64,000 nucleotides of DNA from Schmidtea polychroa (taxonomy: Eukaryota): positions 79,918,001 through 79,982,000 of the forward strand of contig CM097886.1 of assembly GCA_044892525.1 (NCBI GenBank), given 5' to 3'. Both the position numbers and the translations under genes were made by a program. Positions 1,302 through 64,000 of this stretch are shown here, piece after piece. The notes beneath the pieces were generated by a model. That model worked only from the letters and a program-made list of their open reading frames with translations, was not told where the DNA came from and did not search any database. Numbering within the stretch: the stretch's first letter is position 1; every line of letters begins with the position of its first letter.

Positions 1302-1780
1302 GTCAAGAACGATTTCGATCAGTGACAAGATCTTACTACCGAGGAGCAGCTGGGGCGTTATTAGTGTATGATATCACAAATCGTTCTTCATTTGTAGCAC
1401 TTGAAAAGTGGTTAGCCGACACAAGACATCTAGCTGATCCTGATGTCACAATAGTTCTTGTCGGTAATAAATGTGATCTTGAAAATAATCGCGAAGTAAC
1501 AAAAGCGGAAGCTGAAGAGTTTGCCAATGAAAATAATCTTTTATTCTTTGAAACTTCAGCTTGTACAAGTGAAAATGTCAATGATGCGTTTATAAATTGC
1601 AGTCGTACGATTTTGTCAAATATCGATTCGGGAAATCTCGATCCAGATCGAGTAGGATCAGGAGTTCAAAGTGGTTCAGTTAAAAATTTAAGCTCCACCT
1701 CAAATAATCAACCTGGAAAGTATCGTGGAAAATCTTTGACGGCTGAATTAAAAAATGCCACAGCCGAATGTCAGTGCTAA
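1302..1780 (+). CDS. Rab4: Rab GTPase (Rab4-like), last coding exon; earlier exons lie upstream of the window
   Basis: [35 protein letters not shown] motifs and C-terminal CQC prenylation motif. Acceptor AG at 1300-1301 gives a phase-1 junction into (WDTA)G-GQ, so the ORF-track Met at 1283 is intronic. RSVTR..ALLV favours Rab4 over Rab14/Rab2. Confidence 0.8.
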
Positions 1781-43501: not shown

Positions 43502-44427
43502 CATATAAATACTAACTAATTTATTCTATCTAATCAACCACTTTAAATTTTTTTGCAAAAGAAAAGCTTGAAATTAGTAACCTAGGTTTAGTAAGCTAAA
43601 TTTTAAACATGATTGAGCTCAGGAAACTGCAAGTCTTTTGACGTAAAGAATACATAACATAAAAATTATACGAAATATTTATATAAATTTTGGCAACGGT
43701 AGATATTTATTTCTGTGCAAAGCTTAGTTAATAAATATATTTTTATTTATTTATTTATTTATGAGAATTCGCTAAGCTCAACAAATCTGATGTATTTAAT
43801 TATATGTCTTTCGTGTACTAATTATTTATAAATCTAACCAGTAGTATAATTGTATCTTTTAATTATTTTTTTTAAATAACAGACTTCTCAAAAAAAACTG
43901 AGTACCCCTAGCTATGTGGATACTTGCAAATCCTACTTACTTACTGTTGCATAATATGTTTTCATTATGTGTGTGTATATATCCTCACAATGTTATGTTT
44001 CTTTTAGTTAATGCGTTATTGTTGATTTTTTTTCAATGTATTTAAACAAATTGAGAAGCTCTGAGTTTTGCCATCACGACATTGTCGCCGAAGCCGATAT
44101 AAAAAATGTTATGTCAAACTGTGAATAAATTAATCATAAACACACTGAACTAGATAAAACAGAAAACTGAATAGTAAAACTATTTTTAAAATAAAAATTG
44201 TAACAACCATAGTTTAAACTTGGCTGGATTTCATTCAGTTAAATATGAAATTAGTAACTTAATTAAAATTGAATTTATATGGTTTAATTTATTTTTGTTT
44301 AACTGAATCATTAACGAATACTTGTTTGAAGAAAAAATAAGTTTGTAGTTATTAACTACTTATTAGCTAATCTTTTTTAAATCTTCAACTATTGATATTT
44401 TCCTTTATTAATAGTTTATATGATAAA

Positions 44428-45216
44428 ATGCAGCTTCAGAATCATATTTATGGAGATATACCATTTATAAAATTCGAATTTATATTCGAAATGAGAGGAG
44501 AATTAGCGAAATTTTTTATCAATAATTCTATGATTAAATCTATAGAAAATAAATCCAATTGCAAAATAAATTTAACTAAAAGAATACTGAATCGTCAAAT
44601 AGAAAATTTCCCATGGACTAAATATCATATTTTGGAAATTATATCGAATAATGAGAGAAATATCAAAATCTGCAATCATTTACTGGAGCGAGCAATTCCT
44701 CTATATAAGAAAAGAAAACTTTATAAAAAGCGTAGCAATGTCAGCATTTTTACCAATGAATTTCATCCTGATAATACCGATCTCTATTATCCAACTCAAA
44801 GAACTGGTGTACTTTCTGGACAATATTGCGAGTTAGAGTTGAATAATATTTTATCATGCGAAAATAGATCCAGCGAATGTTGGGATTTTCCGTGGAAGTC
44901 TACAAATTCAGAACAAAGTGGCTGTTATATACCTCAGCATTATGATAATTTTGATTCCATTCGTGCTGTTTATCCTGATTTGATCAATTTTGAAGATCAT
45001 TTTAATCCCGAGATCGAAAATAGTGCCTGTCCGAAGCAATCTTACTGTGAAGTGAAAACTCACTGCCTTTGTGATATTGACCCTTTAACGGGGCTTCAAC
45101 ACAACAATAAAACGAAACGCATGAAAGTTAAATATAAACCAATTAAATCCAGACGCGGTGAAACTGATCAAAAAAATGATTTGATAAAAAATATTATTAA
45201 ACATCTTATTAAATAA
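44428..45216 (+). CDS. Intronless 262-aa ORF with a degenerate KH-like domain and Cys-rich C-terminal half
   Basis: Long open frame in AT-rich DNA; AATAAA overlaps the stop. FEFIFEMRGELAKFFI..IKSIENKSNCKINL..LEIISNNERNIKIC fits type-I KH periodicity, but the GxxG loop is absent. Confidence 0.6.
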   Translation: MQLQNHIYGDIPFIKFEFIFEMRGELAKFFINNSMIKSIENKSNCKINLTKRILNRQIENFPWTKYHILEIISNNERNIKICNHLLERAIPLYKKRKLYKKRSNVSIFTNEFHPDNTDLYYPTQRTGVLSGQYCELELNNILSCENRSSECWDFPWKSTNSEQSGCYIPQHYDNFDSIRAVYPDLINFEDHFNPEIENSACPKQSYCEVKTHCLCDIDPLTGLQHNNKTKRMKVKYKPIKSRRGETDQKNDLIKNIIKHLIK

Positions 45217-48149
45217 AGTGTTTTTTTTAAATAATAAATATTACATTGAAACCGTGTTGAAAATTTTCTTCGTTCAAGTTACAATTAATTTTGGGGTTTG
45301 GATTTTATTTTAAATAATTAATAATTTTTATTAATTTTTATGTAATACAATATTATTGGTTAACACTAGATTTACGGACTGAGCCAATTTGACTAATTTA
45401 AAATTCTTTTGCTACATATATATAATACTGATTTACTATATTTTGAATGCATATGTTGGATTTTGGATACCTCATGAAATATAGGTCAATATTAATTACT
45501 CTCCTCTATCGACTCCCTCATTTTTTTTATATCGAATTAGGTATACCTATTTTTACGGCTATTTTTACCTGTAAACCTAGTGTTAAGAAGTCAAATTATT
45601 TATGCAAATATATCGCGTTGCATGTGATAAAAACTTTATTGAGGTGTAATGCCAAGAAAATATACAAAGAAAAATGAGAAATCATTCCATATAAATTATT
45701 GTCAGATTTTATAAGAATTAATGGATATTTCACATTTTAAATAACCCTAATTTCTCGCGTATAACCTGCACCTAATAAATTTCAATAATTTCCATAAAAG
45801 GTAAAATTTTTCACTTATAAACCACACTTAGGTACTTCCGTGTTATCTTACCCCCAAAAATTAAATTATAAAATACAATTAAAATGTTGGGCTAGAACTG
45901 ATTTCTAGACCCAAAATACTAATTGTGACTGAAACGCGTAGGTACACAGCAAGTAAAAAAGCACCAAGTATAGTTAAATATTAAAACCTACACCAAATAA
46001 ACAATATTAACTAAAGGAGAAAGCAACAAAAACATAAACAAAGAAATTAAACAAAATTATACAAAAGCAAGAAGTGATGCAAAAATCTAACTCAAAAATA
46101 ACCAAATAAACACAGAGTTACAAAAAACAGACTCGAATAACTTAAAAGACGATAAAAACAGTAAAACATTCCAGAAAAACCCAGAACATTCTATAAAAAT
46201 GGCGATGACCATCACAAAAGTTATCTAGAACAACAAAAGTTAAGGAAAATAAATAAATTAGTATTAAAAATAAAAAATCTCAAAAAGAATTCATAAAAAC
46301 ATCAGTTAAAATAAAAATTAAATTAAAAGTAAAATAGAATGTTCTGGAACCGTTCCAAATCCATCATGGACGTAAAATTAATGAAAAATAATTAAAAAAT
46401 AAAAATATAAAAATAAAAACAAAAATTATTGCACAAAAATTGCCATTAAAAATAGCAAAATCGTAAAATAGAAAATTCTGGAATAAATAGAATTCGAGTT
46501 TGTTTTAATGCATCAATACATACACGTGTACAAAATAGGTATATATACTGACGCGTTTCAGTCAGAATTAACCATTATTTTATGCCAAAATTTTTGTGTC
46601 AACAAAATATCAACAGTGAGTACGATTGATTCATTTTATCTATTATTATTTTATTTTATTATTATGTATTGTTGTCTCAACTATGTTAAGCTATTAAAAT
46701 GTTTTATATTTTGAATTTGTTTAATTAAAGTTTTTTTTTGATGTACGAATGTTCAACGGCGTACCGGTATTCCTGCGTCGTTGTTCAGTCCTGCATTTAA
46801 TTTTTGAATTCGATTTCACATGCACACATACATTATTTATATTATACTAATCACTTATTATATGGCTCTTTTTGTGTTCGGGTCCTTCGGAGGTCGAACT
46901 ACTTCATGGTCCTGCCATGGAGTTAGGTCGAGGAAAACCTCCGCCTGACTCTTTGTATTTATGTAAGGTCGACCGTAAATGGTTGACTCAACACATAACA
47001 CTAAGGTTTGTGGAAGTGGTCACAGTGGGGCCATGGAAGCAATATTCTTCCCGACTCATTACGTAATATACAATTAAACTCAACACTTAAAATTCTGAAC
47101 AAATAACTCCACACTAAGGTCTTAATCTGAGTAGAACTCATACTTAAATTAACACAATTATACAAATCACAGCAATGTAGATGGTTGATCAGTTATGCTT
47201 AGACATATGCCGAATTGGGTTTTCGTAACAGTCGTTTATAGTAATCAGAGTAATGGAAAGGTTAAAGATATTCGGCATACGTGTAAGTATAACATAATCT
47301 GGTTAAGTCTTCGAATCAATATAACTGTAAATATTCCGGACCCCAAAAATTAAGTTGCGAAATCCCATCTTAACATACTTATAAGTACTCGGTTGTAATA
47401 ATCTTTTATGTTGATTATAAAACTACAGGTGATAAATGACTATGTCGTTGTAGGTACGAATTATAGCCAGAGAATATAAATTAGGAATTCAGAAATTGAG
47501 GTATAAATCGGGAATGGTAATGACCAATCTCCTAATGTAAAAAGTCAATCAACTTGAAACTAGTTATACATAGATATACTGCAACTCTGAAGTGATAAAA
47601 CGATACCCAGAAATCGGTAAGACAATGTTGATAATAGAAAGGGAAGTTAGAAAGAAGTATACCAAGCTGACCAAAAATTAGAACTCAAAAATATGAAATT
47701 ATAAATTAGGAATACCGAATTACAAATTGTAAATCATAAAACCTAAAATTTTAAATCAGAAAATATAAAATCATAAATGGTAGAATATCGGATTATAACT
47801 TATAAGATATAACATTATAATTTACGAAATATAAATGGATAAATTATAAAATATGAAATTTTTAATTGTAAACGATAAAATTATAAATTATAAAATATCA
47901 ATTCCTAAATTACAAAATATAAAAATTATGAATTGCAAAATAAAAATTTATAAACTATAAAACTTAAATTTGCAAGTTATAAAATATAAATTTATAAATT
48001 ATAATTACCTATAAACTATAACCACCTATATATTACTTAACAAAATGGTATAAATATAGAGTATGAAAAAACTAGAATTAATACTTAACTTAGAAATTTC
48101 GAAATATATATAGTTACAATAAGCTTGCCTCTAAGTACAAAAATCCCTT

Positions 48150-48850
48150 TAAGATTATAAAATAACTGTAAAATTATTGTAATTCTTAATATCATCACTA
48201 GGATTTCTATTAATATTACTAATATTATTAGTATTACCATTATCACTAGTATCATTATTATCCCTATTCGTATCATTATTATTACTATTATTGCTATCAT
48301 TATTATTAATATGATCACTATTATTATTATTATTATTACTATTATTACTATTATTATTGTTATTATTGTTAATATTATCACTANNNNNNNNNNNNNNNNN
48401 NNNNNNNNNNNNNNNNNNNNNNNNNNNNNNNNNNNNNNNNNNNNNNNNNNNNNNNNNNNNNNNNNNNNNNNNNNNNNNNNNNNNNNNNNNNNNNNNNNNN
48501 NNNNNNNNNNNNNNNNNNNNNNNNNNNNNNNNNNNNNNNNNNNNNTTATGATTATTACTATTATTAGTATTATCATTATTATTATTATTATTACTACTAT
48601 CATTATTAATATTATCATTATGATTATTATTACTTTTATTATTATTATTATGATTGATATTATTATTATTATTAACCTCGTTATCATTACTACCCTCATT
48701 ACGACCATTATTATTACCATTATCCTTATTATTATTATCGTTACCATGGTTATTATTGTTATCCCGGTTGTTGCTATTAGTACTATTAACGATAAGTTAT
48801 ATACGACTTGACTAGTATTATTACTAATACTGCCCTTAATATATATAATT
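48150..48850. repeat. (ATT/ATC/ACT)n low-complexity tract with an assembly gap (~48383-48545)
   Basis: Read directly. Confidence 0.9.
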
Positions 48851-49952
48851 TAATTGTAGATAGACATATATATATATATATATATATATATACTTAGTCA
48901 TGGTGGAATATATTAGTAAATGCATAAATATTATACTGATTATATATTATCATTATTACTACTTATAAAAATCAATATCCCAATCTGATATTGATTTTAG
49001 GATTTCCCCAATAAATTAAATATAGAAACAACCCTTTGAGCCAATCAGAGGGATCAGAATTCGGAAAAACTATTTTTAGCAACACCCCCCCCCCCCTCTG
49101 GGAGAATGTTACCATTATTCAAGCCACCTAGGGATGTGAATAAGGGGGTAGGATCAGCTATGCAAGTTAACACTGAATATATAATCAAACTTAAGTTTTA
49201 TCAAATCAACCTAAACGAGAAATTTTATTCATCAAATTGCCTTGAATAATAAAGTACTGTACACCCGGGTTATAGATGCCAAGCACCATGATTTTCACCT
49301 AAGAACGAGAAGCCGAACTCCAGGAGCTGAATCTCTAACTCTCCAGCTGAAAAACGATCGCCAAATTGTCCCTAAATTAAACACATACGATGAAAGAATA
49401 AATTACCCCAAATGCATAGACGATGATTTTACCACTTATAACGAATACAACCAGGGGAAGAGTAAGTGGGCAAGAGACTGAGCTCGTCACTAGTACCCTT
49501 CGCCTGACGTAATCGCATTTAGTGGAAATATTCACATCTACAGAAAATTACCTAAAATTTCCAAAATTTTAACTTATAAAATTCAAATTACCAACTAGTG
49601 GTAAATAAATGACGAATGATTAAATCAATAATTTAAAACAAAACCATTTTTTTTTGAGATTTTCGGATCGGGTATGGATTTTCTGATGTTAACACTTAAC
49701 TCTAATGAATTTTTATTTAATTAAAAAGTATATCAATAGATTAAATAAAATTTGGTCATGTGAGGAGGATTTATATTAATTATAATAAATTTAGTAGTAT
49801 AATAAATTTAGTAGTATAATAAATTTAGTAGTATAATAAATTTAGTAGTTAAGTACTATTGATTTTGAACAAGAACTTTCTGTATGTTTGTTATGACATC
49901 TATTTATAAGCCACGTTGGCTACGAGCGGGCCTTAATATTCATATTATAGAC

Positions 49953-50318
49953 ATGTCGCAATCGAGCTCTAGCAGTGACGAGGGTACTGACCATCAGACG
50001 ATCACCCGTCTCCGGACCCGGTACATCTGGCACCATATACATCGGTGGGGTCAGGGAAGGGACCTGGACTGCGCAAATAGAGTGATCCGGACGGGCCCCG
50101 AAGTAGATGCCCCGGCATGGGTGAAGGTGGAGCCGGGGAATAACCGGTAACAGGAGGCCCGAGATCAAGCAGCCTGGGAGGTGGAAGCCGCTCAGATGCG
50201 ACTCAAGAAGATCGAGATGCAAATCAAGGCGGAAAAGGAGGGAGTGCCTCTGGAAGAATTGGAAGAGGTCGAGGCACACCCGAGAAAGAGGGGGAGGCCC
50301 CGCAAGCACCCCGCGTAA
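49953..50318 (+). pseudogene. LTR-encoded ORF A (121 codons, one in-frame TAA at 50148-50150) ending in an AT-hook
   Basis: The frame stays open past the TAA: QEARDQAAWEVEAAQMRLKKIEMQIK..PRKRGRPRKHPA. Followed by AATAAA at 50441. Confidence 0.65.
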
Positions 50319-50609
50319 TTGTGGGAGGACAATTTGCTCGACATTGACAATTTGTTTTTATATGAACTAATTATTAGGAATCTGCTGTGTTTATTTTATC
50401 TTTTAATTTTGTATTAATAGACGTCGGGTGTTTATTCTCGAATAAAGTATTCTTAGGTGTTTTGTAAATCATTTGATAGATGGGGGGGGGTATAAGGATG
50501 CCCTAGTAGGAAATGTTAAGATTAATTCATTGATTTTAATACTTATTGTCCTAACTTTATTGTTGGGTGTAATGGGAACTAATGAATTTCCTCTTTAGTG
50601 TACAAGTTA

Positions 50610-51068
50610 ATGGAAAATCTCCGGAAGGATCGGGAGCAGGCCCAACACCAAGTCGACGAATTTCGGATCCGGGTGGACAAGTTGAAGGGAAAATGTCGAG
50701 ATTTCGAAGGGACCTGGTTTAGTCCCGAAGCAATGAAAAAGAAAACCGCCCAGATCCTCCAGCTGCAAACGCAGGCCGCCCAAGACCAAATGGAAATCCG
50801 CGCCCTGAAGCTACAGGTGCGGGCGCTCGAAACTGAGAAAAACGAGCAGTTGGTACAAGGGGCTATAGCCAGACAAATACGGCCACTGGCTGTGGACCTC
50901 GCAACTATATATCCCCCAGCCGCTGAAAATAAGCCCAAAAGGAAACGGCTTGGCCGAAATATTCGGGAAAAATTGAAGAAAGCTAGGCTGGCCGAATACG
51001 AGCGGCAAGCAAATTCGTCACCAGCAGCCACGACGGAATTGGCCAGTCCTACCAATAAGCCTGTTTGA
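50610..51068 (+). CDS. LTR-encoded ORF B (152 aa), coiled coil + basic motif
   Basis: FEGTWFSPEAMK and KPKRKRLGR shared with the 9600-10334 ORF. Confidence 0.75.
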   Translation: MENLRKDREQAQHQVDEFRIRVDKLKGKCRDFEGTWFSPEAMKKKTAQILQLQTQAAQDQMEIRALKLQVRALETEKNEQLVQGAIARQIRPLAVDLATIYPPAAENKPKRKRLGRNIREKLKKARLAEYERQANSSPAATTELASPTNKPV

Positions 51069-51474
51069 ACTTATATTCGGTTTTAGGTGTTTTGTAGTAT
51101 ATTTATGTATTGTTGTAGTCTTCAAATAATATGTTCCTTGTTAAAATAATGCACATTTTGTAGTGATAAAATAATGACTAGTATAGTTTATGATTGCCTG
51201 GAAAATGGGAGTTTGTGCATAAGGTTGGGAAAACAATTTTGATAAAGGGACCTGAGAAATCGGACACACACCTTCTATCGGTAGTCCGTGAACCCATGGA
51301 GTACTCGACAATTATAGTGCTTTGATGCGCTCACTTTTTGCGAGTACTCAACCCCTTGGTACAGTACCAACGTTGATTACTCAACGGGTACCAAGCGGAA
51401 ACCAACGTTGTATTTTGGGTTACGCTGGTAACAGCACTCAATCATTCAACCACCAGTAACCCACCATACAAATT

Positions 51475-51492
51475 TGGGGGCTCAGCCGGGAT
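51475..51492 (+). promoter_or_regulatory. Primer-binding site complementary to the tRNA-Pro 3' end
   Basis: TGGGGGCTCAGCCGGGAT(TTG); 16/18 identical to the canonical TGGGGGCTCGTCCGGGAT. Confidence 0.9.
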
Positions 51493-52189
51493 TTGCAAAT
51501 TTAATTGGTGAAAGAACCCGAGAATAGATATAATGGAGAGAGTAAAAGCTGATATAAAGTAATATGCATTCAAGATTGAGCAAATTGTTTTCCCAAACAC
51601 TTTAACTTAGTACATGGATATGTGAATATGATAAAATGTATATGAAATGTTTAAATGAGTGATTGAAGTTTTAAAGTGTGTCAACATATGAATGTATTAA
51701 AAGTGAGTATGAGAGTACTGTACGAATAGCGTAGTAATAGAATGAAATGATAATAAACGAAAATTAAAACTAAAACAAAATATAGGAAAATTGTAAATAT
51801 TAACGATTAATAAAATGTAAATATAAAGAAATAATCAAAATCTAAAAAATAAGGAAAAAAGGGGGATAGCACGCTAATAAAAACAGAACAAATGAACAAC
51901 GTAATTAAACTTAATCAGAAAACGCGTAAAATAGGGCGATAACGAATGGGATATGGGTTATATATAATTAAAACGATTGTAATAAAGTCACAAGATCATG
52001 AAAGAATTTGCGCGGGATAGAACATTAAACAGAGGGAGACGGGGTTGTTAAGAGTGATAAGTAGAAGGTAAAGGTTTATTGAAGCACTAATGAAATAAGG
52101 TGCTCTGGATATTAGAGGGAAAATGATAAAGGGGGAAATGACGCGGAATATTAATAAAAAGAGAACTTTAATTAATAAATCTTAATTAG

Positions 52190-52672
52190 ATGGAATCAAC
52201 CGGCTACATTATAAAGAGACTCGAGAAATTCGTAAATTTAACACACAATTCGCTACAACGACTAAATCGCAAAGCGGACCAGTTGGTGAAAATCCAAGAC
52301 GAGATGAGCTTGAATCCAAGACCGCAAGCTGAGGAAATATGTGTAATGATGAAAATAGCAACACCAAATGCAGAATTGACCACTAAAAGAGTTTATCAAA
52401 TTCAAAATTTACGATTAGATGATGCCAAATTTAACATCAAATGGCAGGAGATAATGATGAAAATGGAAACGATCGAGGAAGAAATTAAAGAAACAATCGA
52501 ACATCAAGTTAAAGATTTTAGAAAATGCTTCATATGCAGAACCAATGAAATACGAGTAATGACGATCCCATGTGGTCATTTATGCTACTGCGAGAATTGC
52601 GCAGAAAAAATTAAACGATGCAACGTATGCGATACGAACGTGAGAGAAAAAATTGTAATATACCTCCCGTAA
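52190..52672 (+). CDS. Coiled-coil + C-terminal C3HC4 RING (IAP/MDM2-type), 160 aa, in the element leader
   Basis: CFICRTNEIRVMTIPCGHLCYCENCAEKIKRCNVCDTNVREKIVIYLP-stop; no BIR domain. Confidence 0.88.
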   Translation: MESTGYIIKRLEKFVNLTHNSLQRLNRKADQLVKIQDEMSLNPRPQAEEICVMMKIATPNAELTTKRVYQIQNLRLDDAKFNIKWQEIMMKMETIEEEIKETIEHQVKDFRKCFICRTNEIRVMTIPCGHLCYCENCAEKIKRCNVCDTNVREKIVIYLP

Positions 52673-53299
52673 GGAGATGTTGTCAAATAAATTTCTTGTG
52701 AATGAATATGGGATGATAAAATTTTTAAATTATATTAAAAAATCCATTATAGCAACCGAAAGGTATAAAACATACGATGAACATAGACATATAAAGGACA
52801 CAGAATACGTTAAATAAATAGACAAGCAACACAGCAATTAGAACTAAAATCAAAATTGAATGCAGGACTGATCATAGTCGTATGAATGAGCTGATCGATA
52901 AGATCAGTACGATTTTTACTTCCAATTTTCTTTTCTTCCTGTTTTATTATTTTGGCATAGAGTGATACGACAATGAGGGGATGACAAGTGAATCGTCCTT
53001 ACGACACTTGCCCGGATGGGGAAATCCTGATCACCCTGACGAGAGAATGTAGTAGGATCCATCGCAAATGTTGGGGAGTTTCTGTCGAGTGACTGATCAC
53101 CACTTGTGGGAAATGAACGAACGCGATTATTATATTTGTTTTGTCTGGGAGACTGGGGTTGACTAAAAGGGTGAATAAAAATAGAAAAATAGAAATAAAA
53201 ATTGAAAAACGCGCGCTAAATGTTAAAAATTTAATCCGAGAGCAGCTGCGGATTTGAAGAAACCGTTTTTGGACTTCAAATCAGATGAGAAATAATGAT

Positions 53300-53906
53300 T
53301 TTTCCCTAGCGAGTGATGAGGCACCCGAGTACAGCGGCTAACCACCGGACTGTAGTGTCCAGGAGATTATCAGCCAAGGGACTGATGATGCTGGATCACC
53401 CTATACAAAAACCCGGATACCACACCGAGTATTGGGCGCACTTTTTTTGAGTTGCTAGCGGGACTTGATACAAAAACCCGGAAGGCTAGCGAGCGAGAGA
53501 GACCCAGTTACCTACACCGAGTATTAAGGAGCCCAGTGAAACGGTTGTGAGATACGGGTCAACCCGTAAAGGACTCGTACTCAACAGGCAACCAAGATTG
53601 GACCAGTTGTGAGGCGGGAGACCGAGAGTCAACTGCATATCCAATTTCCTTTTATCTTCACTAGTCGGGAGATCTGGTTCATCACTTTTGAGAATCAAGA
53701 TCGAGGCGATTAGGCATTTCCATGTTTTTTAAATCCTGATAGATAGGATGTTTTTTTTTCTTCGTGATTATTGCTAGCAGGGGTCGGTACAAAACCCGGA
53801 TGCCCACACCGAGTACCGATAGGCCCAGTGAAACGGCGATGAGATTAGAGTTACCGGTATTAGACTCTTTTCAATAGGCGGCCAAGAATTGAGCCAGTTG
53901 TGAGGC
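53300..53906 (+). repeat. Degenerate leader repeats (TACAAAAACCCGG / CACCGAGTA / CCCAGTGAAACGG / CCAGTTGTGAGGC blocks)
   Basis: TACAAAA(A)CCCGG at 53404, 53469 and 53788; CCCAGTGAAACGG at ~53532 and ~53824. Confidence 0.8.
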
Positions 53907-54073
53907 CTCAGCAGATTAGGAATTTGAGTAGGAGGAGCCTTAAATTTTTAATTAGTCCGAAAGCCAACTGTCAACTCAATTTAATCGCGGTAGGGACGAT
54001 AGTAGAAAGCGTCGAGGGGTTGAAGAAACCTCATTTAGGGCATTTGAAACCGGTCAGGGACCGAAGACCGCGA

Positions 54074-54522
54074 ATATGGCGTAATGGTTTAAAAGCCCAG
54101 GCGTCGAGGAGTCGTAAAAGACTTCAGATTATGATTAAACCGGCCGGAAGCCGATGCCGACGTGGAGGTCTAATAAACCAAAGCGTTGATGGGTAATAAT
54201 GGATTATATGGCGTAATGGTGTAAAAGCCCAGGCGTCGAGGAGTCGTAAAAGACTTCAGATTATGATTAAACCGGCCGGAAGCCGATGCCGACGTGGAGG
54301 TCTAACAAACCAAAGCGTTGATGGGTAATAATGGATTATATGGCGTAATGGTGTAAAAGCCCAGGCGTCGAGGAGTCGTAAAAGACTTCAGATTATGATT
54401 AAACCGGCCGGAAGCCGATGCCGAACTGGAGGTCTAACAAACCAAAGCGTTGATGGGTAATAATGGATTATATGGCGTAACGGTGTAAAAGCCCAGGCGT
54501 CGAGGAGTCGTAAAAGACTTCA
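54074..54522 (+). repeat. 132-bp tandem repeat, 3.4 copies, with degenerate flanking units
   Basis: ATATGGCGTAA at 54074, 54206, 54338 and 54470. Confidence 0.95.
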
Positions 54523-55440
54523 TGAGATTAAAATGAGTTGATTAAACCGGCCAGGGAGCCGATGGTAATTGAGTGAAATAATTTAAATGAAATAGGAGAG
54601 TAGATTGGACCGGTCAGGGAGTCGATGATAAATAAATGTAGATGCAGAGGTCGCGCGAACCAAAGCATCGATGAGTAACTATGAAATTGATTAAATTGAA
54701 ATAGATTAAGTGCGACAAATATGTAAGGAGTAAAGGAGAATTATGATAAAGCGCCGGCGCAAGAGAAAATAAAACCAGTTTTTGGAGGGGAAAAGCGAAC
54801 GAATAGATATTAGTTGAGTTACTGAATTTATTTATTAATGATATGTGTACTTTGATATTTCTATAATTGATATTATATTTGATAATTATAAAAGGGATAG
54901 ATAATTGATGCGACTATATAGATAATTGATATGAGTTATAGATAATTTAAAATCGACTTAAAATCAAAATGGGGCGAATAACGAGAAGTGTAGAAAGTTA
55001 GAAAATTTGAAGCGAAGGAACAGTAAAATAAAGGGAAAATGGGAAGTAAATGAAGGGTTTAATAAAGAGAATTTATGATATGTACTAGAGGTGTTAATTA
55101 TTTTAGAATAAAGCAAACAATTCAGAAAGAAATCAAAGAAATCAAGAAAGCAATAGAAATCAAGAGATCTAGAGAAACCAATCAAAAGCAAGGAATCAAA
55201 GAACTTAATAAAATTAGAGAATTATAAAGATTAAAAAAAAAAAAAAAGCGAGACAATAATCAGAAAATCGAAGCTCGATCGACTAAGTAGAAAATTTATC
55301 AAAGGATATTAAAAGGAGGAAAAATTGATAATATAGCTAGCCGAACCAGACGAAAAAGTAAGGGAAACCTCAGTTTATTAGAAAAGGAAGAGATAGAAAG
55401 AGCCAAGAAAAACAGAAAACTACACAAGAAACCAGCATCA

Positions 55441-57537
55441 GTGGAAACAGCATTTGAATCCGACAGTTTAACTAACGAATTTGAGAACAGCGACGATTTC
55501 AAACGAACCGAATTAGATCCAATAAGCGACGTCGAATCAACTGAAGAAGAGGAAAATATATCCGAGACAACAGAGATAACCGTACTGTGCCAAGAGATAA
55601 TGTCGGACGGAAACACGAACGAACCAAGGGTAACGGACCCACCGGAAACAAGTAATGTGCACGTCAACATTGGAGAATTCAGAGAGAAATTTCGAGGAGA
55701 GCCATTCGATGGAAATATAAACCAGCTAGAAACATTTATAAAAGAATTTGAGGTATACATTACGATATGTCACTGGCCAGACATAGTCGTACGAGAACGA
55801 ATACCCCTATATCTAAAGGGAAGCGCCCAAGACGTATACTTGGAGGCGAAATGTGATGCAACAAAGTTGAGAACGTGGAAAGAGATCAAGGAGTTTTTAA
55901 TAAAAACATTCGGTACCGAAAAAGAAGGAAATCGAAAAATGTTAGACTTCCTGCATCGAAAGCAGAAATATAACGAATCCAACGCACTGTACGCATGCGA
56001 ATTGAGACGACTAGCACGAGAAGCCTTCGATTCAAATCAACCAGTTCCGGAAGACAAGATAATAGCCGTATTCGTAGATGGCATGAAACGAGAGGATATA
56101 CGAGCAACCTTAGGATGTCGAGCACCAGAGACGCTGGAAGAAGCACTAAAAATAGCCAACAAATGCGAAACTTACCTAACACCAATACAAGTAGCAGCAA
56201 TGACAGCAGCTCCAGCAGCTCCAGCAACAACAACAACCACAAACAACCAAGTCAATAATGCAAATCCAGTAATGAATCAATTCATCCCAGGATCGCAACA
56301 GTTGTTCAAAACCCCACAAACGAGAAACCAAGACAATGGAGGTAATATTCAAAATTTTACTAATAATTTCAGGAACAACGACAATCGAACGTGCAACATA
56401 TGCCAACGATCAGGGCATTGGAGCAATGAATGTTATAGAGCAAGGATGTGTCAAAAGTGTGGGAGAAGAGGCCACACGGAAACCATCTGCAGAGGTCCCA
56501 CGATGCCTACGGGCAGAGGAGGAACTAGAACCTCCTACAATTGCAACCAGCCTGGACACATGGCCAGAGAATGCACGATGAGAGCCAAACCAAATCAACC
56601 AGGATCAAACAACCCAATTCAGAACACGCAAATCAACCTCATGCAGGAAATCGAACAATTAAAGGATATGATCCAGCGAATACCGACTAATAATCAACAA
56701 CAACGAATCAACATGATGCAGAGCACCGAAGAAATCCGGAAACAACCAAGTAAGCAACAACAAGACCAACAACGAATCGAATGGCAAAGGTTACAAAACG
56801 AAGAAGCCAGAGAAATTCAAGAAAGATGGAAACAACGGGAAGCGAATCCCGGAAGAATAAATATGATGAGGTTAACAAATAAAGAGGAATCGCACACTGC
56901 GGAGCAGTGTGTTAACAACGAAGGGAGTGATCTGATAAAAACGACGAAAGAAAATGAGATTGATCCACAGACAAAATTGAGCAGCGAAGAGAAAATACAA
57001 TTGATTAAAGAATTTACCAAAGAGGAGAAAGAAAGGAGACAAAAGAAAGATGAGAGCCAAGACGAATCAAAAAGCAATGAGATAGTTACAAAAAATCGAA
57101 TTCAGAGGGTACTACTACAAAAAATCGAAGACAGAATCAAAAACGAAAACCCTACATTAACTAAGGAACAAATCAAAGAAAAAGTGAAAGAGCATTGGTT
57201 CAGGAAAAATGAGTGGTTCGAAAAGAAAGAACCACATACCAAAGCTAAAATAAACATGTTGAGACAAATGCGGAGTGATCAGACGGATCAGGAAGATGAG
57301 AAAAGTGAGGTGAGTAGCCTGGGAGGCGAATTATTTCAGTCAAGTGAGGAAAACAACGAACCGAAAACACCTCCAAACAGTGAAACACCTCAAAGTAGTG
57401 ATGAGAGTGAAAATGATGACATAAAATCAATGATAGAAAAAGATGATGAGGAGATATTTGAGGAAATTTTCGACACAGTAACAGAAATAGAGCGGAATGA
57501 GAGCTACATCAACGAGCTAACATATAGAAATGCGTAA
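55441..57537 (+). CDS. gag: Gag (capsid + three CCHC knuckles + long acidic/Gln-rich extension); first in-frame ATG at 55600
   Basis: FRGEPFDGNINQLETFIKEFE capsid start; CNICQRSGHWSNEC, CQKCGRRGHTETIC and SYNCNQPGHMAREC (third knuckle C to S) at 56392-56574. Confidence 0.92.
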   Translation: METAFESDSLTNEFENSDDFKRTELDPISDVESTEEEENISETTEITVLCQEIMSDGNTNEPRVTDPPETSNVHVNIGEFREKFRGEPFDGNINQLETFIKEFEVYITICHWPDIVVRERIPLYLKGSAQDVYLEAKCDATKLRTWKEIKEFLIKTFGTEKEGNRKMLDFLHRKQKYNESNALYACELRRLAREAFDSNQPVPEDKIIAVFVDGMKREDIRATLGCRAPETLEEALKIANKCETYLTPIQVAAMTAAPAAPATTTTTNNQVNNANPVMNQFIPGSQQLFKTPQTRNQDNGGNIQNFTNNFRNNDNRTCNICQRSGHWSNECYRARMCQKCGRRGHTETICRGPTMPTGRGGTRTSYNCNQPGHMARECTMRAKPNQPGSNNPIQNTQINLMQEIEQLKDMIQRIPTNNQQQRINMMQSTEEIRKQPSKQQQDQQRIEWQRLQNEEAREIQERWKQREANPGRINMMRLTNKEESHTAEQCVNNEGSDLIKTTKENEIDPQTKLSSEEKIQLIKEFTKEEKERRQKKDESQDESKSNEIVTKNRIQRVLLQKIEDRIKNENPTLTKEQIKEKVKEHWFRKNEWFEKKEPHTKAKINMLRQMRSDQTDQEDEKSEVSSLGGELFQSSEENNEPKTPPNSETPQSSDESENDDIKSMIEKDDEEIFEEIFDTVTEIERNESYINELTYRNA

Positions 57538-60500
57538 AACTTATAACTCAAGTATACCAGTGTGAAGGAGGTATAATAACGGCAGCATGGAAAGATTTAG
57601 CAACAAGATATAAAGAGAAACTAAAGGAAGCAGGCCCAGATCAATATCAGTTAAGTATTCAACACCCCGAGATTCAGATACAGACTATTGAATTAAAAGG
57701 AACAAATACCGATGAACTGTACAACTGGGTACAGGAAAAAATGGGAACGAGCCATAAAAATAAACAATTATATGTCGATGGTTACAAAGTTAAAATGGGC
57801 ATACATTTGGTAGATGCGATGATATGGCCAAACGAAACTAACATCTTAACCTTAGAGAAAACCAGAGACGACGAATCAGTGGCGGAAATGTTCCAGAAAA
57901 TCCAACAAGTGTTTAACAATGAAGTGGAACCAGAATTGGAAAAGATCGAACGAAAAATAATGAAAGAAAACCAAATAATCTTGGTTAAACAAGCTATCGA
58001 TCAGGCAAGAAAATATATTAATAGACTGAGAAAAAGATGGCCACAACTAATGAAACAATTTGTCAAAGACGTACGAGACACAGAAATTATGAGATTCGAA
58101 GATAAACGAGCGACAGAATTGATATCTAAATACGGAGAATACGAGAGAACCAAATGCGAACGAGAAACGATAAAAATAAAGGTGAAGTTGCCAAATGAAG
58201 AGAAACAAATAATAGAAGTTGACCCCGATTGCCAAGTTGACGAGTTAGTGCAAATCATAGATCAAGAGATCATCCAAAAAGCTCGAGAAAATAGTGAGGA
58301 TGGAATGATCGAAGATGTGATAATAATGTACAACCGGCATATGTTAGAAAGAGGAGACCGAACTGTAATTTACGAACTAGGAATCTGGGAAGATGGAGCC
58401 GTCATCAATATAATCGCGATGGATGAACCATCGGGTGGACACAAAAACGCCACCAAAACCGATCAACAAATCAAGAGATTCCAATGGGGAATGAGAGCCA
58501 AGATGGATCGAATAATAGATATTTATAACCATTGGCTAAAGGATGACAAACTAAAACTAACACCATTCAATGACGAAGATTGCAAACTGATACCGTGGAA
58601 GAAGGTGTGGATCGAAAATGAAGTTCGATGGGATTGGGAGCAGCAAAAGTTGGAACCAAATTGGATAGATAATATACCAGAAGAGATCGCAGCAGTATGG
58701 GTAAGAGAGAAACCGATCGATACTTACCAGGATATATTACCACAAGAATTCCAAAATGAATTACAACCAGGAGAAGATGAGGAGATACGAGAACCGGTAA
58801 GGTTAGCACCATTCACGTGGAAAATTGAGAATTGGATGGAAAAGATAAAATTAGCAAAAAAGGAGAAAATCACACGATTAGTAAGCCCGTCGTTCTACTC
58901 AGGATTAGGTGAGTACAAGATGAAATTGCGAATATACCCGAACGGAGACGGGGTAGGAAAAGGAAGTTATGTGTCGGCATTCTTCATCATCTGCAAAGGG
59001 AATTATGACGGCAAGGTACCATGGCCGTTTAGCAGAAAAGTGACGATAGCGATTGAACCACTGAAAGATAGCCTTAACATACATAAAGAAACATTGAAAC
59101 CAGATCCAAGGAGCGCCTGCTATCAACGACCAACAACATCAGAAAATATCGCTTCAGGGACACCTAAATTAATACGTCTAAATTACATTGAGAATGAGCA
59201 GTCAATATTTGTGAAAGACAATGCTATCCAGATCAGAGTAGAAGTTGAAACAGAACAAGAAATGAACCAACGACTGAACATACCAGAAAATCAACCGAGA
59301 ATCTGTATGATGAGGAGAAGACTGCTTGATTCAGGACATCTGCCAATAGACGCCGACGCAGATGAGGAAGAAGCAGCAACATTGTTGGAAGCACAAAAAT
59401 GTAAGGAGTTGATGGAGATATTACAAAACGGTGCGAAAAATCGTCGACGAGCGGTGGTAGAACTAGCAAAATGGGTAGCCAAATCATGCAAAAGGATTCA
59501 AAACCTACGAAAGATCGTTAAAGCGATTGAAGAATATCGACGGGTATACGTATGGTACCCTGAACAATTTGGTGAAATCATCCGGAAATGGAAACAACAA
59601 GAGTGGGCCGAAAACTCACCTGAGAAATATCAACTAAAAATATTCTTGCCAGATTTTGAACCAATGGAAAAGGAATTCTACACAACAGCCAAGGTCAGGG
59701 AAGTTAAAAAGAGAATACCTTATGAACTCCCATTCCACTTACAACACGAGGGACGATCATTAGACGACGATATTGAGATTGGTGTGACACCACTCCAAGG
59801 AGAAATTGTGAACAGATTAACGGTGAGTAAAATTGCAGGTAGAGAGTTAAGGAGAAGAGAGATAAAGCAAAAATCATCCACCCAACAACCAGGAAGTTTG
59901 GACACACCAGAAGTTCCAAATGCGGTTAGTGAAGTGACGATCGAAACAACGGGAGAAGACGAAATACTAGACGAATTACAGGAGATAGTAGAAGCAGGCG
60001 AGATTATGAGAGCATCGCAATCGGGAGATCTATTTATCGACGAAGGTGAACCAACAATTGATGATCTAGATGGATTTGTATGTGCGCAAAGACAACCAGT
60101 GGAAACGACAGAAGCCGAGACGGATTTAGATAATGTGGGAGGAAGTGCCAATAAAGATGTAACCACAACCGATGAATGGAGTAACTGGAGAGTAGATCCA
60201 GGAGCGACCACGTCAAAAGATACAACTTACAATCCGCCAAAACGGAAAGAAACCGGAACGGCTATGGATCGACGAACAAGAGGAAGACCAAAAACAGATA
60301 AAGCAGAGGTGGAACCAAAATCCAAAATTCAAGCACAAATGGAACAGGTAAAAACTAAAATGGATAAACTAAGCGCATTAGTAAAACAAGTCAAAGTGAA
60401 AACAAATGTCCGGGAACAAGGGACACGATGGATAAACGACTTATTAGCTAACATGTTAGCGTTAGCAAATCCAGATGTGAAAAGAGTAATGAGGAAGGAT

Positions 60501-60929
60501 CATATCCCGACCGAAGCCAAACAATTATGGGCGGTATTGAAACCGATAATAATGAAAATCATGGATAATAAAATTCGATTAACGTTAAAGGATCCCGTGG
60601 AACTCAGATTAATTGTGGAACATCTGTTAAGCAGATCAGAAGACCAAAATCGATATTTAGTGGGATTAGCATATTTGGTGTATAACGTCATTGGTCAATA
60701 TAAAAAACGAATGCCAAAATATAACGCAACTGGTTACGAATTCACAGTAACAGAAATAATCAAACGATCAATAGAACCATATATACTTGAACAAGGGGGA
60801 TGGAGAAACTTCATCGAATCAACTGGGAAGAAAGATCAAACGGAAATGATGCAAGCAAAGTTACGCGATTTGCTAACTGAATTCGAAGGAACAATCAATA
60901 TGAACGACCCAAGAGCAAGCCGAAAGGGA
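57528..60929 (+). CDS. Accessory polyprotein region: UBL1 (57645-57854), UBL2 (58170-58415), TRAF-C/MATH (58809-59246), UBL3 (59628-59825), Bcl-2-like (~60429-60830)
   Basis: The frame is open from 57528 and overlaps the end of Gag. TRAF motifs FTWKI, SPSFY, RIYPNGDG, WPF..KVT, QRP..N.ASG.P; BH2-like IEPYILEQGGWRNF; ubiquitin-like strand/helix patterns. Confidence 0.85.
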
Positions 60930-63144
60930 ATGAATGCCATAATAACCACGATATTGATATGGATGATGTGTATCAAGGGAACGGAGTCATTTGCAGTATA
61001 CGACTGCGACAACATAAAAATCCATGAGAAATATTCATTAAAGGATACGGAAGACTGTAAAGCGGCAAACCCAAGAAAATTACAAACAGTCATGGCATCA
61101 GTTTCGTATAACGTATATCAAGAAGCAGATTTCATCAAAACCATGGTCCAAGAGTGTACAGTAAACCAGAAAGATATTCGCACATCACTGCGGTTCATCC
61201 TCACACTCAACAATCATAGAACCGGGATTGGAATCGACAGTAATATTATTATCAAGAGAGGAATGTGAGGAAGGATTTCGATCGGGGAGAATTCACTTAA
61301 GACAAGGGATTGAAATTGCTGCAGAAGCAGGAAAAATAAAAACGACTCGCGTATATACGGCAGGCAGAATAACCAAAGGGGATGGAACATGCGAGACGGG
61401 AACATACACCCTGAACGGACAGCTGGTTAGTGGAGTGGTCGTAATAGAAAGTTACGAAGCTAAATTAGAAAGATATCAAGGTTATTTCGACCCTGACACG
61501 CAAGCAATGAAGAAATACCCAAGTTGTCTCGCATCAGATCGATCATGTTCAACCGGAATGTCAACCCTGGTATACCACGCAGATCAGAAAGTATGTCGAC
61601 TAATGTTACTCAAAACGGCAATATTCGAGGAAATCCAAGGGAAAGTGTACAGTGAACCAAAAGGAGCAGCAGAAAGACGAGCGATGGAAGAATTGAGAGC
61701 AAGGAAAGGATTCAGAGAAGACGTAATAACATCGAAATTGGAATCGGAAGTAACACCCACAGCGATAATCTCCAAAGATGATGGAATAGGAATGAGATTC
61801 ATAAAGAACAAAATGGTGAGTAAATGCGATGAGATGGTGATCAGTACCAATTATAAAGGGATCTACTTGTCGCGGAGAACCCTAGCAAATGCAGTCGGAA
61901 GACTAAGCGAAAAAGATGTCAAATTATATTTATATGCTAATAATAAGATGGATTTCTTATATCACAGAGGATTAACATCCACGGAAAAAGTCTACCATGA
62001 TCTGTTAAGAAACGATTGCCTGCTCAACAAAGAAATATTGAGAACGAAATTAGCAATGGCGATTACAAATCCAGATAACGCAATCCCGTTACTACCATTA
62101 CAGGAAGGATATTTCGGACGAATTGTAGGCGAAGTGATGTACACCTACCAATGCAAGAAGATAATGGCAAGATTGCCGGAAAACCCTACAATACCAAGGG
62201 ATAAATGTGCAAACGAACTCGAAATCATTCACGAAGGTAAACCCAGGTTTGTGCAAGCAGTCACCAGGATAATGAACCCGGCAGGATTTCAGCCAAATTT
62301 GTTTAATTGCAGTAATGCATATGGACCAATGTATGAGGAAGAGGATGGACAATGGGTTCAATTTCCAAGTAAAACAATCGTAGTAACACCCAAGAAGTTC
62401 GGATTGACGGAACTAACAACAGAACTAGAGTTCAAACCGATAGACGTATCCCAGAGTGGATTATATACACCAAAAGATCTTGAATCAGCAAGAGCCCACA
62501 TGTTATTCCCAGCACAAAGACAGGCGATCTTATCAAATATAGTGACTATTTCTGGAGGAAATAATTATGGGGAGAGCCCAAATTACGAGCTACTATTATC
62601 ACCAAGTCACTATCAACAGGCAACAGCAAATATGATGAAGGCTATGTGGGGTCGATTTTTGGTATTCGGCCAAATGATGGCAGGGATACTCGGAATCATT
62701 CTGATAATACAAATAGTCAGAGTGATACTAACTCAGATGCTAGCATGTTTTGATATTTATAAACGCGAGAGAAAAGTAAATTGGAAACTTGCAATTGGAT
62801 TCTTACCGTTCTTAGCGAAGACAATGGTGCTGCATGGACACTCAAAGGATATCCATCGAATAAAGAGATTGTTGAAAATATTAACGCAAATGAAAGGGAC
62901 AGACGAAGAAGTCGGACGTAAGTTCAAAGTAATAATGAGATTAGAAGCAGAAAGAACTCAAGAGAAAGCGAAAAGAACCGGGAAGTGGAAAAGGTGGATG
63001 AACCTCAGACGAGACGATGATAGTGATGACAATGATGATTTCGACGACGATGATAATAACCAAGGAGGAGCAATGTTGATAAACAAAAACCCAACCACTT
63101 GGGAAAACGAAAAAATGAAACCATGGGGATCACCATATTTATAG
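60930..63144 (+). CDS. env: Envelope glycoprotein, chuvirus/mononegavirus-like; 1-nt frameshift at ~61164
   Basis: Internal signal MNAIITTILIWMMCIKGTES then FAVYDC. The +1 correction gives ECTV-TRKIFAHHCGSSSH. LYLYANNKMDFLY, GYFGRIVGEVMYTYQC, C.NEL, TRIMNPAG..C; TM segment ~62656-62740. Confidence 0.85.
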
Positions 63145-64000
63145 GCACCAACTAATGGACCAATGCGACGACCAGGAACAATGAGAGAACGGATAAGAAT
63201 GGGAACCGCAAGATTACCCATACCGAACATTTATCCAACAGCTTATGAACCAAATTGGGCAGCAATGGATCCAACGATGATCAAACAGGCTAAAAGTGTA
63301 GAACAAGAAGTGGAGACACGAACGATCGGGGTATTGCAGACACCAGCCGGACCATCATTAACCATCACGGTTGAAGTAAACGGAATAGAAATGGATGCAA
63401 TGATTGATACCGGAGCGAATATCTCAGCAATAAATATGAATATGCTACCAGGTAGACTATGGCCATGCATCGAGGAGACAACCATGGATGTAATAACATG
63501 CAGCTAACAATCCATAGCGGTAGTAGGAAGAGTATGGTCAACGATCGAATATAAAGGGGTTAAAGTTACAACGTACCTCGCAGTCATTAGACAGCTAAGC
63601 GTATCATGTATAATTGGAACAGATGTAATGCCGGAATTATTGAAGGAAATTGTGATTGATTTGAGTTCCATGAAATTAAAAGATAAAACTGGACAGATAT
63701 GCACAATGAGAACAGAAGTGAGATGCTCCGAAAAAATGATAATACCAGCACGTACCCAGACAATATGTTATGTCAAGGTCGATAACGAAGCCAAAGGAGA
63801 TATGATATTTGAACCAAGTCAAAAATTCGAGAAGAGAAGAGAGCTGCCATTGGCAAGAGAAATTGTCAGTATAAATGAGGATAACGAGATACCCATTAAC
63901 ATCACCAATTTTGATGAGGAAGATAAAGTAATCTACGAAAACGAGAGACTTGGAAAACTCACACCAATGATGAACATTGAGCTGCCGGAGATAAAAAGCG
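63145..64000 (+). CDS. pol: Pol 5' end: aspartic protease followed by a degenerate dUTPase-like spacer; in-frame TAA at 63505-63507
   Basis: AMIDTGANISAI and, after the TAA in the same frame, CIIGTDV then IPARTQTICYV..LAREIV..IPINITN. Same frame as Env across the TAG at 63142-63144. Confidence 0.88.

Follow-up and report, generated by a model that had tools for sequence, protein, structure and literature searches.

A young, broken giant Ty3/Gypsy copy, very probably of Burro1 type, with signalling modules that may keep its host cell alive

The closest described system is Burro1/GYPSM1 from Schmidtea mediterranea (Jurka 2007 and Grohme 2018, via PMC6431247), for which the available text of a 2019 review (PMC6431247) describes a 4,873-aa ORF1 encoding a Gag with three CCHC knuckles, a MATH_TRAF_C domain and a BCL2-like motif, with a Ubi2/SUMO-like motif between the latter two. 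According to the same text, the Env of Burro1 lies in frame between BCL2 and the protease and hits mononegavirus fusion proteins; the element also carries PR-dUTPase-RT-RH-IN, ankyrin and BIR regions, and proviruses that interfere with apoptosis and ubiquitination have already been proposed. An anti-apoptotic role has been attributed to the Burro1 IAP (B-IAP; Lee, Poulet, Allikka Parambil and van Wolfswinkel 2026), as cited in the accessible part of PMC13465017. Errantiviruses such as Drosophila gypsy, contrasted with Burro1 in the review text (PMC6431247), share with the locus described here a Ty3/Gypsy Pol joined by a fusion protein acquired from a virus, but encode Env as a separate ORF after Pol; the present Env belongs to the Monjiviricetes type and lies in frame, after Gag and ahead of the protease.

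The DNA analysed, referred to as the window, is a stretch of 64,000 nucleotides from a planarian-type AT-rich host, in which a young giant LTR element of Ty3/Gypsy type fills positions 45,885-64,000 with its left half (Table 1). The start proposed in the original prediction proved exact, with a TG terminus at 45,885 opening a 5.58-kb LTR that is 99.6-99.9% identical to the 3' LTR (found in L002/L003), after which the AAAA of the 4-bp target duplication recurs. Such duplications are present in five of six other copies, whose LTRs measure ~4.32 kb. The element totals 42,530 bp, or ~36.6 kb without a nested 5.9-kb element, and in other copies LTR starts are spaced ~30 kb apart (2,585 candidates); like Burro1/GYPSM1, it is thus longer than 30 kb and of high copy number. 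A search beyond the window end, advised in the original prediction, found RT, RH and IN in that order, and the best PDB match of Pol was Ty3 Gag-Pol (5e-119; best retroviral chain, 1e-34). The element therefore has the TG...CA ends, short target duplication and PR-RT-RH-IN order of Ty3/Gypsy, with an RT nearest, on a best-match basis, to the Ty3 type. We conclude that it is very probably a young copy, now broken, of a giant Ty3/Gypsy element of Burro1 type, likely from a planarian, and that its family encodes one polyprotein of ~4,790 residues whose signalling modules likely keep the host cell alive during replication.

Table 1. Features of the element within the window (positions of the whole stretch).
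Feature	Position	Strand	Evidence
5' LTR, 5,582 bp, TG...CA ends	45885..51466	+	preceded by AAAA, 4-bp target duplication
Short LTR ORF, 88 aa	49884..50150	+	
LTR ORF, 152 aa from ATG, charged, helical-looking	50610..51068	+	
Primer-binding-site-like TGG-led 18-mer, 8 nt past LTR	51475..51492	+	sequence
160-aa ORF, C-terminal IAP-type C3HC4 RING	52190..52672	+	zf-C3HC4_3 3.4e-12
Tandem repeat in leader, 132-bp unit, 3.4 copies	54074..54522	+	
Gag, capsid and CCHC knuckles	55600..56580	+	Retrotrans_gag E 7e-7; Ty3_capsid 1.4e-6; zf-CCHC 3e-10
Break 1, frame change	57520..57540	+	50%-identical relative P0001 reads across
UBL1, possible ubiquitin-like domain (weak)	57648..57866	+	
UBL2, ubiquitin-like domain	58161..58425	+	first Atlas hit ubiquitin family, 0.92
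TRAF-C/MATH domain	58812..59255	+	MATH_2 2.5e-27; best PDB match TRAF3, 4.5e-30
UBL3, likely ubiquitin-like, between MATH and Bcl-2-like	59619..59823	+	
Bcl-2-like domain	60420..60830	+	BH2-like GGW retained, BH1 NWGR lost
Hydrophobic segment, predicted Env signal peptide	60930..60974	+	hydropathy
Env, mononegavirus/chuvirus-type fusion glycoprotein; anchor 62,686-62,730	60975..62800	+	PF24664 (Monjiviricetes_fusion) 1.1e-59
Break 2, frame change near 61,165	within Env 60975..62800	+	
Break 3, premature stop	63142..63144	+	
Aspartic protease, DTG motif	63355..63660	+	RVP 8.7e-5
Break 4, stop, splits protease	63,505	+	open in 10/10 comparison copies
Conserved domain between PR and RT, position of Burro1's dUTPase-like motif	63691..64000	+	

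The polyprotein runs in the order Gag, UBL, MATH, UBL, Bcl-2-like, Env, PR, RT, RH, IN, ankyrin and a second pair of membrane segments, and its four hydrophobic segments fall in the expected order. Between the first ATG (55,600) and the beginning of RT lie ~2,860 codons, against ~2,800 predicted, and the four lesions anticipated there are present, namely, frame changes near 57,530 and 61,165 and stops at 63,142 and 63,505; two more breaks beyond the window end (L001 near 2,470 and at 2,845) bring the total in this copy to six. The homologous 300-nt stretch is uninterrupted in 8, 10, 9 and 10 of 10 other copies for breaks 1 to 4, respectively, fractions that are biased high since these copies were taken from the top MATH matches, several of them for long frames. 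Because the homologous stretches are mostly open, the four breaks are specific to this copy. Of 150 copies scored, 60 have a frame of 4,770 aa or more around MATH, and in 43 of these it measures exactly 4,791 aa, as compared with 4,873 aa in Burro1. Intact copies thus have the single ORF1 of Burro/GYPSM1 (~4,800-4,900 aa), which is broken in the present copy; with its polyprotein interrupted, this copy would at most be transcribed or complemented.

The predicted Gag is borne out by its capsid and knuckle matches; of the three CCHC knuckles known from Burro/GYPSM1, a motif scan located two in complete form (56,392 and 56,449) and one that is degenerate (56,533). The predicted signal peptide and glycoprotein likewise held, in the form of hydrophobic segments at 60,930-60,974 and 62,686-62,730 and the Monjiviricetes_fusion match; the first segment lies where this model begins in relatives, and Env found no match among PDB sequences. 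As in Burro1/GYPSM1, this mononegavirus-related Env is in frame between BCL2 and PR, a BCL2-like motif (preceded here by a weakly scoring candidate for the ubiquitin/SUMO-like one) stands ahead of it, MATH_TRAF_C lies within ORF1, and PR, RT, RH, IN, ankyrin repeats (Ank_2 1.3e-8) and BIR (8e-17) are present, the last two past the window end and the BIR within a BIR-RING gene. The expected protease has a retropepsin match, and the domain between PR and RT is conserved at 28-30% identity in a second family; HMMER gave no Pfam match for it, nor was there one in PDB, the Burro1 dUTPase-like motif having come from HHpred (PMC6431247). For the Smc-like coiled coil of Burro/GYPSM1, the candidates are an ORF of 533 aa and stretches of charged, helical character, with no Smc match in Pfam. 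The original prediction was sound in its anatomy and right to name Burro as the comparison to make, but its statement that the combination was not recognisable fell: domain order, in-frame Env, BIR and the apoptosis idea had been published for Burro1/GYPSM1 (PMC6431247), and a match with a described architecture was what the prediction itself had set against its novelty.

Whether the element is Burro1 proper was approached with three published BURRO1 oligos (PMC8532177), which have no match, with up to 4 mismatches, in the window or in 29 loci; an exact search of the genome with the forward primer also came up empty. Since the primers match neither the element nor, where tested, the genome, we named it Burro1-type rather than Burro1. 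Strict membership, that is, identity to S. mediterranea Burro1/GYPSM1, would not appear to hold with these oligos as its sole proxy, and the label rests on the published description and the oligos. The primer failure would also fit a separate, undescribed family of giant elements that merely resembles Burro1, as would the UBLs ahead of MATH, the full-length TRAF ORF, the RING-only ORF and the second membrane protein, which do not figure in the available text of PMC6431247. However, a primer for a host gene, published in the same table as the oligos, likewise finds no site in the genome with up to 2 mismatches, which points, weakly, as this is one primer that may span an intron, to a related host species rather than to a new family. 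Moreover, the domain order is the same as in Burro1 and the ORF length nearly so, reports place Burro1 across Dugesiidae and in land planarians, and elsewhere the relative P0001 has this UBL-UBL-MATH stretch too, 50% identical, so that we consider a separate family very improbable.

Regarding the cargo, the predicted TRAF-C domain is clear from its MATH and TRAF3 matches, and the three predicted ubiquitin-like domains fared unequally. UBL2 is fairly supported, by a sub-cut-off Pfam match (OTU1_UBXL 0.0013) and a pooled profile that retrieves ubiquitins. UBL3, at the position of the Ubi2/SUMO-like motif of Burro1, scores weakly (8.7 bits with a profile made from foreign relatives, versus a shuffled maximum of 3.2) and is unfolded in a model of pLDDT 39. 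UBL1 was not upheld: it is missed by a profile built without it (leave-one-out), and shows a beta-beta-alpha-beta, beta-grasp-like element order in a model of pLDDT 39. The two AlphaFold2 models obtained, from shallow alignments and with pLDDT of 40 and 39, were not taken as proof. Single-sequence Pfam and PDB searches gave no UBL above cut-off and no Bcl-2, and none of 1,940 candidates yielded a homologue of the UBL1-UBL2 stretch among shorter proteins. The predicted Bcl-2-like domain was recovered with a family profile reaching Bcl-xL at 2.6e-7, built from the segment and eight relatives, two picked by a Bcl-2 search and six by a sequence search with the segment; the segment of this copy alone has no Bcl-2 match in Pfam, and, among 11 relatives retrieved by sequence, four show Pfam Bcl-2 matches that stay below cut-off.

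Outside the main frame, the predicted IAP-type RING ORF was confirmed; it has no BIR match in Pfam, in which it differs from B-IAP, and its 160-aa frame is open in each of the 150 top-scoring matches, out of 3,633 candidates. A separate full-length TRAF ORF occurs in 10 of 10 copies examined, which rules it out as a subfamily extra. Large DNA viruses bear anti-apoptotic genes such as vBcl-2 and baculovirus IAP, and the analogy previously drawn with such toolkits is sound, as Bcl-2-like and BIR-RING cargo is here also carried by a selfish element and may act alike, with the difference that it belongs to a retroelement polyprotein.

Purifying selection spans the whole polyprotein, Env and all cargo included. 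From 11 copies, giving 45-55 non-independent pairs, pN/pS was 0.09 for Gag, 0.16 for UBL1, 0.12 for UBL2, 0.22 for MATH, 0.05 for UBL3, 0.08 for Bcl-2-like, 0.04 for Env, 0.01 for PR, 0.04 for RH-IN, 0.13 for ankyrin and 0.19 for the post-ankyrin ectodomain, and 0.13 and 0.16 for the TRAF ORF and BIR-RING, respectively. Constraint on the linker that separates UBL3 from Bcl-2-like is like that on the cargo (0.12), and low pN/pS is therefore no proof of a cell-death function. The in-frame cargo (UBLs, MATH and Bcl-2-like) might no longer act on cell death and, being part of a reading frame that the element needs, be kept as a spacer, a membrane tether or an aid to folding, leaving the separate IAP gene as the only anti-apoptotic one. 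The linker value agrees with this, but an excess of synonymous over nonsynonymous change needs selection on residues, beyond the frame alone. The BH1 motif is lost, although viral Bcl-2 proteins often keep their function with diverged BH motifs; and a second family that retains Bcl-2-like and Env yields no MATH match, whereas MATH here still reaches TRAF3 at 4.5e-30 and the junction of Bcl-2-like, signal and Env is seen again in relatives that are 22-30% identical. Despite B-IAP being the only function found reported in the source texts available, we regard such inert cargo as unlikely.

In the explanation that we prefer, cleavage of the polyprotein would yield capsid, envelope, enzymes and the signalling modules that likely keep the host cell alive. 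The chain is predicted to thread the ER membrane four times, at the Env signal, the Env anchor, a second signal after ankyrin and a last anchor, which would place Gag, the UBL-MATH module, UBL-Bcl-2-like, Pol and ankyrin in the cytosol, with Env and a second glycoprotein facing outward. Signal peptidase and the element's own protease would release the parts, and the Env signal segment may remain on the Bcl-2-like domain, serving as its tail anchor. The BIR-RING protein would inhibit caspases, a role reported for Burro1 in the available source text, while ubiquitin signalling of the TNF/NF-kB type would be the target of the TRAF, MATH and RING proteins.

The second glycoprotein is suggested by a signal-ectodomain-anchor unit that closes the polyprotein after integrase-ankyrin. 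Its ectodomain has 6 N-glycosylation sequons in 375 aa, versus 1.6 expected from cytosolic parts, and 13 cysteines conserved in 10 of 10 copies; it gave no usable Atlas hit and no Pfam match above cut-off. A second family, 44% identical in Pol, ends likewise, with a 202-aa ectodomain and 5 sequons. Compatible with the preferred explanation is an infectious endogenous virus, whose Env would fuse particles into other cells while the second surface protein attaches or targets them, allowing spread between cells. Env being among the most constrained parts and the same terminal unit closing two families both fit such a virus, and the provirus idea is already in print (PMC6431247, available text); yet the two ectodomains are not significantly alike (pairwise E 0.011-0.014), and an in-frame Env puts Gag and Pol at opposite ends of a membrane-threaded chain, so that particles need not follow. 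We entertain infectivity tentatively, as possible but somewhat short of an even chance.

A bolder form of this idea, which strikes us as doubtful, would see Burro-type elements as two-glycoprotein viruses made as one membrane-threaded polyprotein, with a chuvirus-like fusion protein before Pol and, after integrase-ankyrin, a second surface glycoprotein whose tail ends in a PDZ-type motif. Their signalling kit (a full TRAF, an extra MATH, two or three UBLs, two IAP-type RINGs, Bcl-2-like and ankyrin) would keep stem cells alive and mute defence while particles pass from cell to cell. The architecture and the anti-apoptosis idea being already in print, little is added as discovery. What is added is that the family is young and largely intact in this genome, with 60 of 150 scored copies full-length, and that Env and cargo are under purifying selection; given these intact frames and this selection, particle formation and the roles of Bcl-2-like, TRAF and the second membrane protein merit testing. 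A stem-cell model animal provides the setting for the question on infectious particles raised by the 2019 review.

The motif RI[NCF]M[ML], defined on this copy, occurs at 8 places, several at domain junctions (shuffle mean 0.04). As a protease site it was set aside, to be kept as a lead only, because a looser form is not enriched in 10 relatives (none in 7; at best 14 of 300 shuffles). Of the ORFs within the LTR, that of 152 aa gave nothing above cut-off in Pfam. Past the LTR, the primer-binding-site-like 18-mer presumably resembles the 3' end of tRNA-Pro.

The four breaks that the original prediction placed in the polyprotein frame (ORF1) of this copy, near 57,529 and 61,164 and at TAG 63,142 and TAA 63,505, are present in the sequence, and two further breaks past the window, downstream of the integrase core, bring the total to six. 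Ten other copies were picked by hand among the best MATH matches, several of them because their frames are long, and so form a biased sample; the stretches corresponding to the six breaks are uninterrupted in 8, 10, 9, 10, 9 and 10 of them. Among the 150 MATH matches that were scored (1,559 candidates), 60 sit in an uninterrupted frame 4,770 residues or longer, and for 43 of the 150 the frame is exactly 4,791 residues. P0001, a protein from another source with 50% identity, is continuous across the first break. Therefore, the open frames in other copies, together with P0001, indicate that a single polyprotein is a family trait, and that this copy has decayed.

Gag gave a Retrotrans_gag match (7e-7), with two complete CCHC knuckles and one degenerate; MATH matched Pfam (2.5e-27) and TRAF3 (4.5e-30); Env matched Monjiviricetes_fusion (1.1e-59), with no match among PDB sequences; and the protease matched RVP (8.7e-5). 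The order continues past the window with RT, RNase H, integrase and ankyrin; among solved structures, the best relative is Ty3 Gag-Pol (5e-119). The dUTPase-like motif reported for Burro1, a call made with HHpred, gave no match here using HMMER. In P0010, P0005 and P0009, related proteins from other sources, two to four tandem aspartic-protease-like stretches occur downstream of Env.

The Bcl-2-like domain had no match in Pfam or PDB when this copy was searched alone. With the post-MATH part as query, 11 related proteins were retrieved, of which 10 match at the start of Env and four have sub-cut-off Bcl-2 Pfam matches. A nine-row profile including relatives reached Bcl-xL at 2.6e-7, all 60 matches listed being Bcl-xL or Bcl-2; in the alignment, the BH2-like GGW is invariant and the BH1 NWGR motif is lost. 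As for the three ubiquitin-like domains (UBLs) claimed previously, UBL2 has fair support; leave-one-out profile tests point weakly to UBL3 and gave zero support for UBL1. A pooled profile of hand-picked rows matches ubiquitins, a result that is partly circular. Structure models were of low confidence (pLDDT 40 and 39). Elsewhere in the genome, apart from host Bcl-2 genes, short Bcl-2 matches that are nearly identical to one another occur by the dozen at scattered places, in frames of 152-180 aa of which many end with TAG. Other repeats likely carry them; three examples that were fetched had no match to the ORF1 polyprotein.

Within this 781 Mb genome, where the window occupies G000:C2:79,918,001-79,982,000, the partner LTR was found within the next 25 kb, at 99.6-99.9% identity (6 substitutions in 5,427 aligned bases). 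Both element ends are flanked by AAAA, and five of six other copies examined have 4-bp target duplications, the sixth joining internal sequence in a tandem-array-like manner. The total span is 42,530 bp because an ordinary Gypsy element, with a short target duplication and younger than the Burro-type copy, splits the 3' LTR. A search with the LTR's first 621 bp retrieved 2,585 candidates; all 40 scored matches were 99-100% identical, often in pairs about 30 kb apart. LTRs measured in six other copies are about 4.32 kb, and this copy therefore has a longer LTR variant. The element may be primed in an unusual way, as the stretch directly before the 3' LTR holds no clear polypurine tract and the primer-binding-like site stands 8 nt away from the 5' LTR. 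Six ORF1 breaks and a TRAF ORF deletion are many for an LTR difference of 6/5,427 bases (window 55,291 to L001:5,631, the latter fetched beyond the window), possibly reflecting LTR homogenisation or a defective template.

Coordinates of the element and neighbouring features (L002 and L003, stretches fetched beyond the window)
Feature	Position	Remarks
5' LTR	window 45,885 to 51,466	
Ordinary Gypsy element, 5.9 kb, in 3' LTR	G000:C2:79,996,327-80,002,243 (L002:4,327 to L003:about 1,240)	Gag, PR-RT-RH-IN in three frames
Stretch directly before 3' LTR	L002:2,891-2,934	polypurine tract not clear
RING ORF	window, at 52,190	160-aa frame
Accessory ORF, 341 aa	L002:1,548-2,573	two hydrophobic segments, cysteine cluster, coiled-coil look
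ORF, 281 aa	window 44,371-45,216	directly upstream of insertion; weak KH match, E 0.059
Inverted repeats, 1.29 kb	window 17,687-25,753	99.4% identical
hAT-like transposase frame	window 32,696-35,378	broken (by inspection)
piggyBac-like transposase frame	window 36,274-37,954	broken (by inspection)
Rab-family GTPase exon	window 1,277-1,780	by inspection

The RING ORF, which has no BIR match, is open in all 150 best-scoring matches. Downstream of ORF1 there follow a 153-aa ORF, a TRAF gene, a BIR-RING gene and coiled-coil ORFs. The TRAF gene begins with a RING-like part that matches TRAF6 and TRAF2, followed by zinc fingers and MATH. An internal deletion breaks it in this copy; a frame of 487 aa is uninterrupted in six of the 10 copies fetched and, counted by hand, in some 116 of the 150 matches scored. 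ORF1 ends in a second hydrophobic pair around a post-ankyrin stretch of 375 aa, with 13 cysteines and six N-glycosylation sequons, versus 1.6 expected from the cytosolic parts. A second family in the same genome, 44% identical in Pol and with frames of some 3,050 aa, likewise has a Bcl-2-like domain and Env, and closes with a signal-ectodomain-anchor unit whose last letters are SSLV; ORF1 ends in ATLV in nine of 10 copies. By their letters, both ends may be PDZ-binding motifs. The 341-aa accessory ORF, with zero families over cut-off, possibly encodes a third membrane protein.

LTR transcription, priming, reverse transcription and integration are established for the Ty3/Gypsy group. Here, transcription would start from the LTR, with priming at the site after 51,466, reverse transcription, and integration with a 4-bp duplication. 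The four hydrophobic segments would thread the polyprotein through the membrane, with two ectodomains outside and, on the cytosolic side, Gag, UBL-MATH, UBL-Bcl-2-like, Pol and ankyrin; signal peptidase and the element's protease would free the modules. A recurring junction motif, RI[NCF]M[ML], is a candidate protease site that failed when tested out of sample on relatives. The Env signal segment, some 33 residues past the Bcl-2-like core, may serve as its membrane anchor. Judging from family functions, the BIR-RING product would block caspases, and TRAF, MATH, RING and ankyrin would act on ubiquitin-dependent signalling.

Pairwise pN/pS among 11 copies, a biased sample of non-independent pairs, was 0.01-0.22 over all parts (Env 0.04, Bcl-2-like 0.08). 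Since the linker also gave 0.12, these low values show the protein to be important for the element, and say nothing of cargo function. Codon differences private to this copy (21 nonsynonymous, 27 synonymous) give a ratio of 0.20; thus, most of them predate its decay.

The original prediction did not recognise this domain combination and proposed comparing it with Burro; the architecture matches that already in print for Burro1/GYPSM1 of Schmidtea mediterranea, whose description includes the matching domain order, in-frame Env, BIR and ankyrin (PMC6431247). The observation is thus real and most parts are well supported, yet the element belongs to an already described kind. Compared by description and oligos, it is best called Burro1-type, not Burro1; it has the main architectural features of that kind and probably works like Burro1. 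Proviral interference with apoptosis and ubiquitination has been proposed (PMC6431247), BURRO1 is described as abundant and active (PMC8532177), and Burro1 B-IAP is reported to protect stem cells, in a family spread across freshwater and land planarians (Lee et al. 2026, as cited in PMC13465017); Burro is also mentioned in PMC11410931 and PMC13238120. Three BURRO1 oligos from PMC8532177 had no match to this element, the forward primer no exact match anywhere in the genome, and a host-gene primer from the same source none at 2 mismatches, which weakly suggests that the mismatches reflect a related host species. A second membrane protein or whole TRAF gene in Burro elements was not found in the literature surveyed, mostly by titles and abstract openings; the Lee 2026 and Grohme 2018 supplements may cover them. 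That Burro-type elements are infectious viruses with two glycoproteins seems to us rather doubtful.

Upstream of the element, by the look of their translations, the ORFs enclosed by the inverted repeats resemble a protein-primed DNA polymerase, packaging ATPase, integrase and capsid, suggestive of a small Polinton/Maverick-like element.
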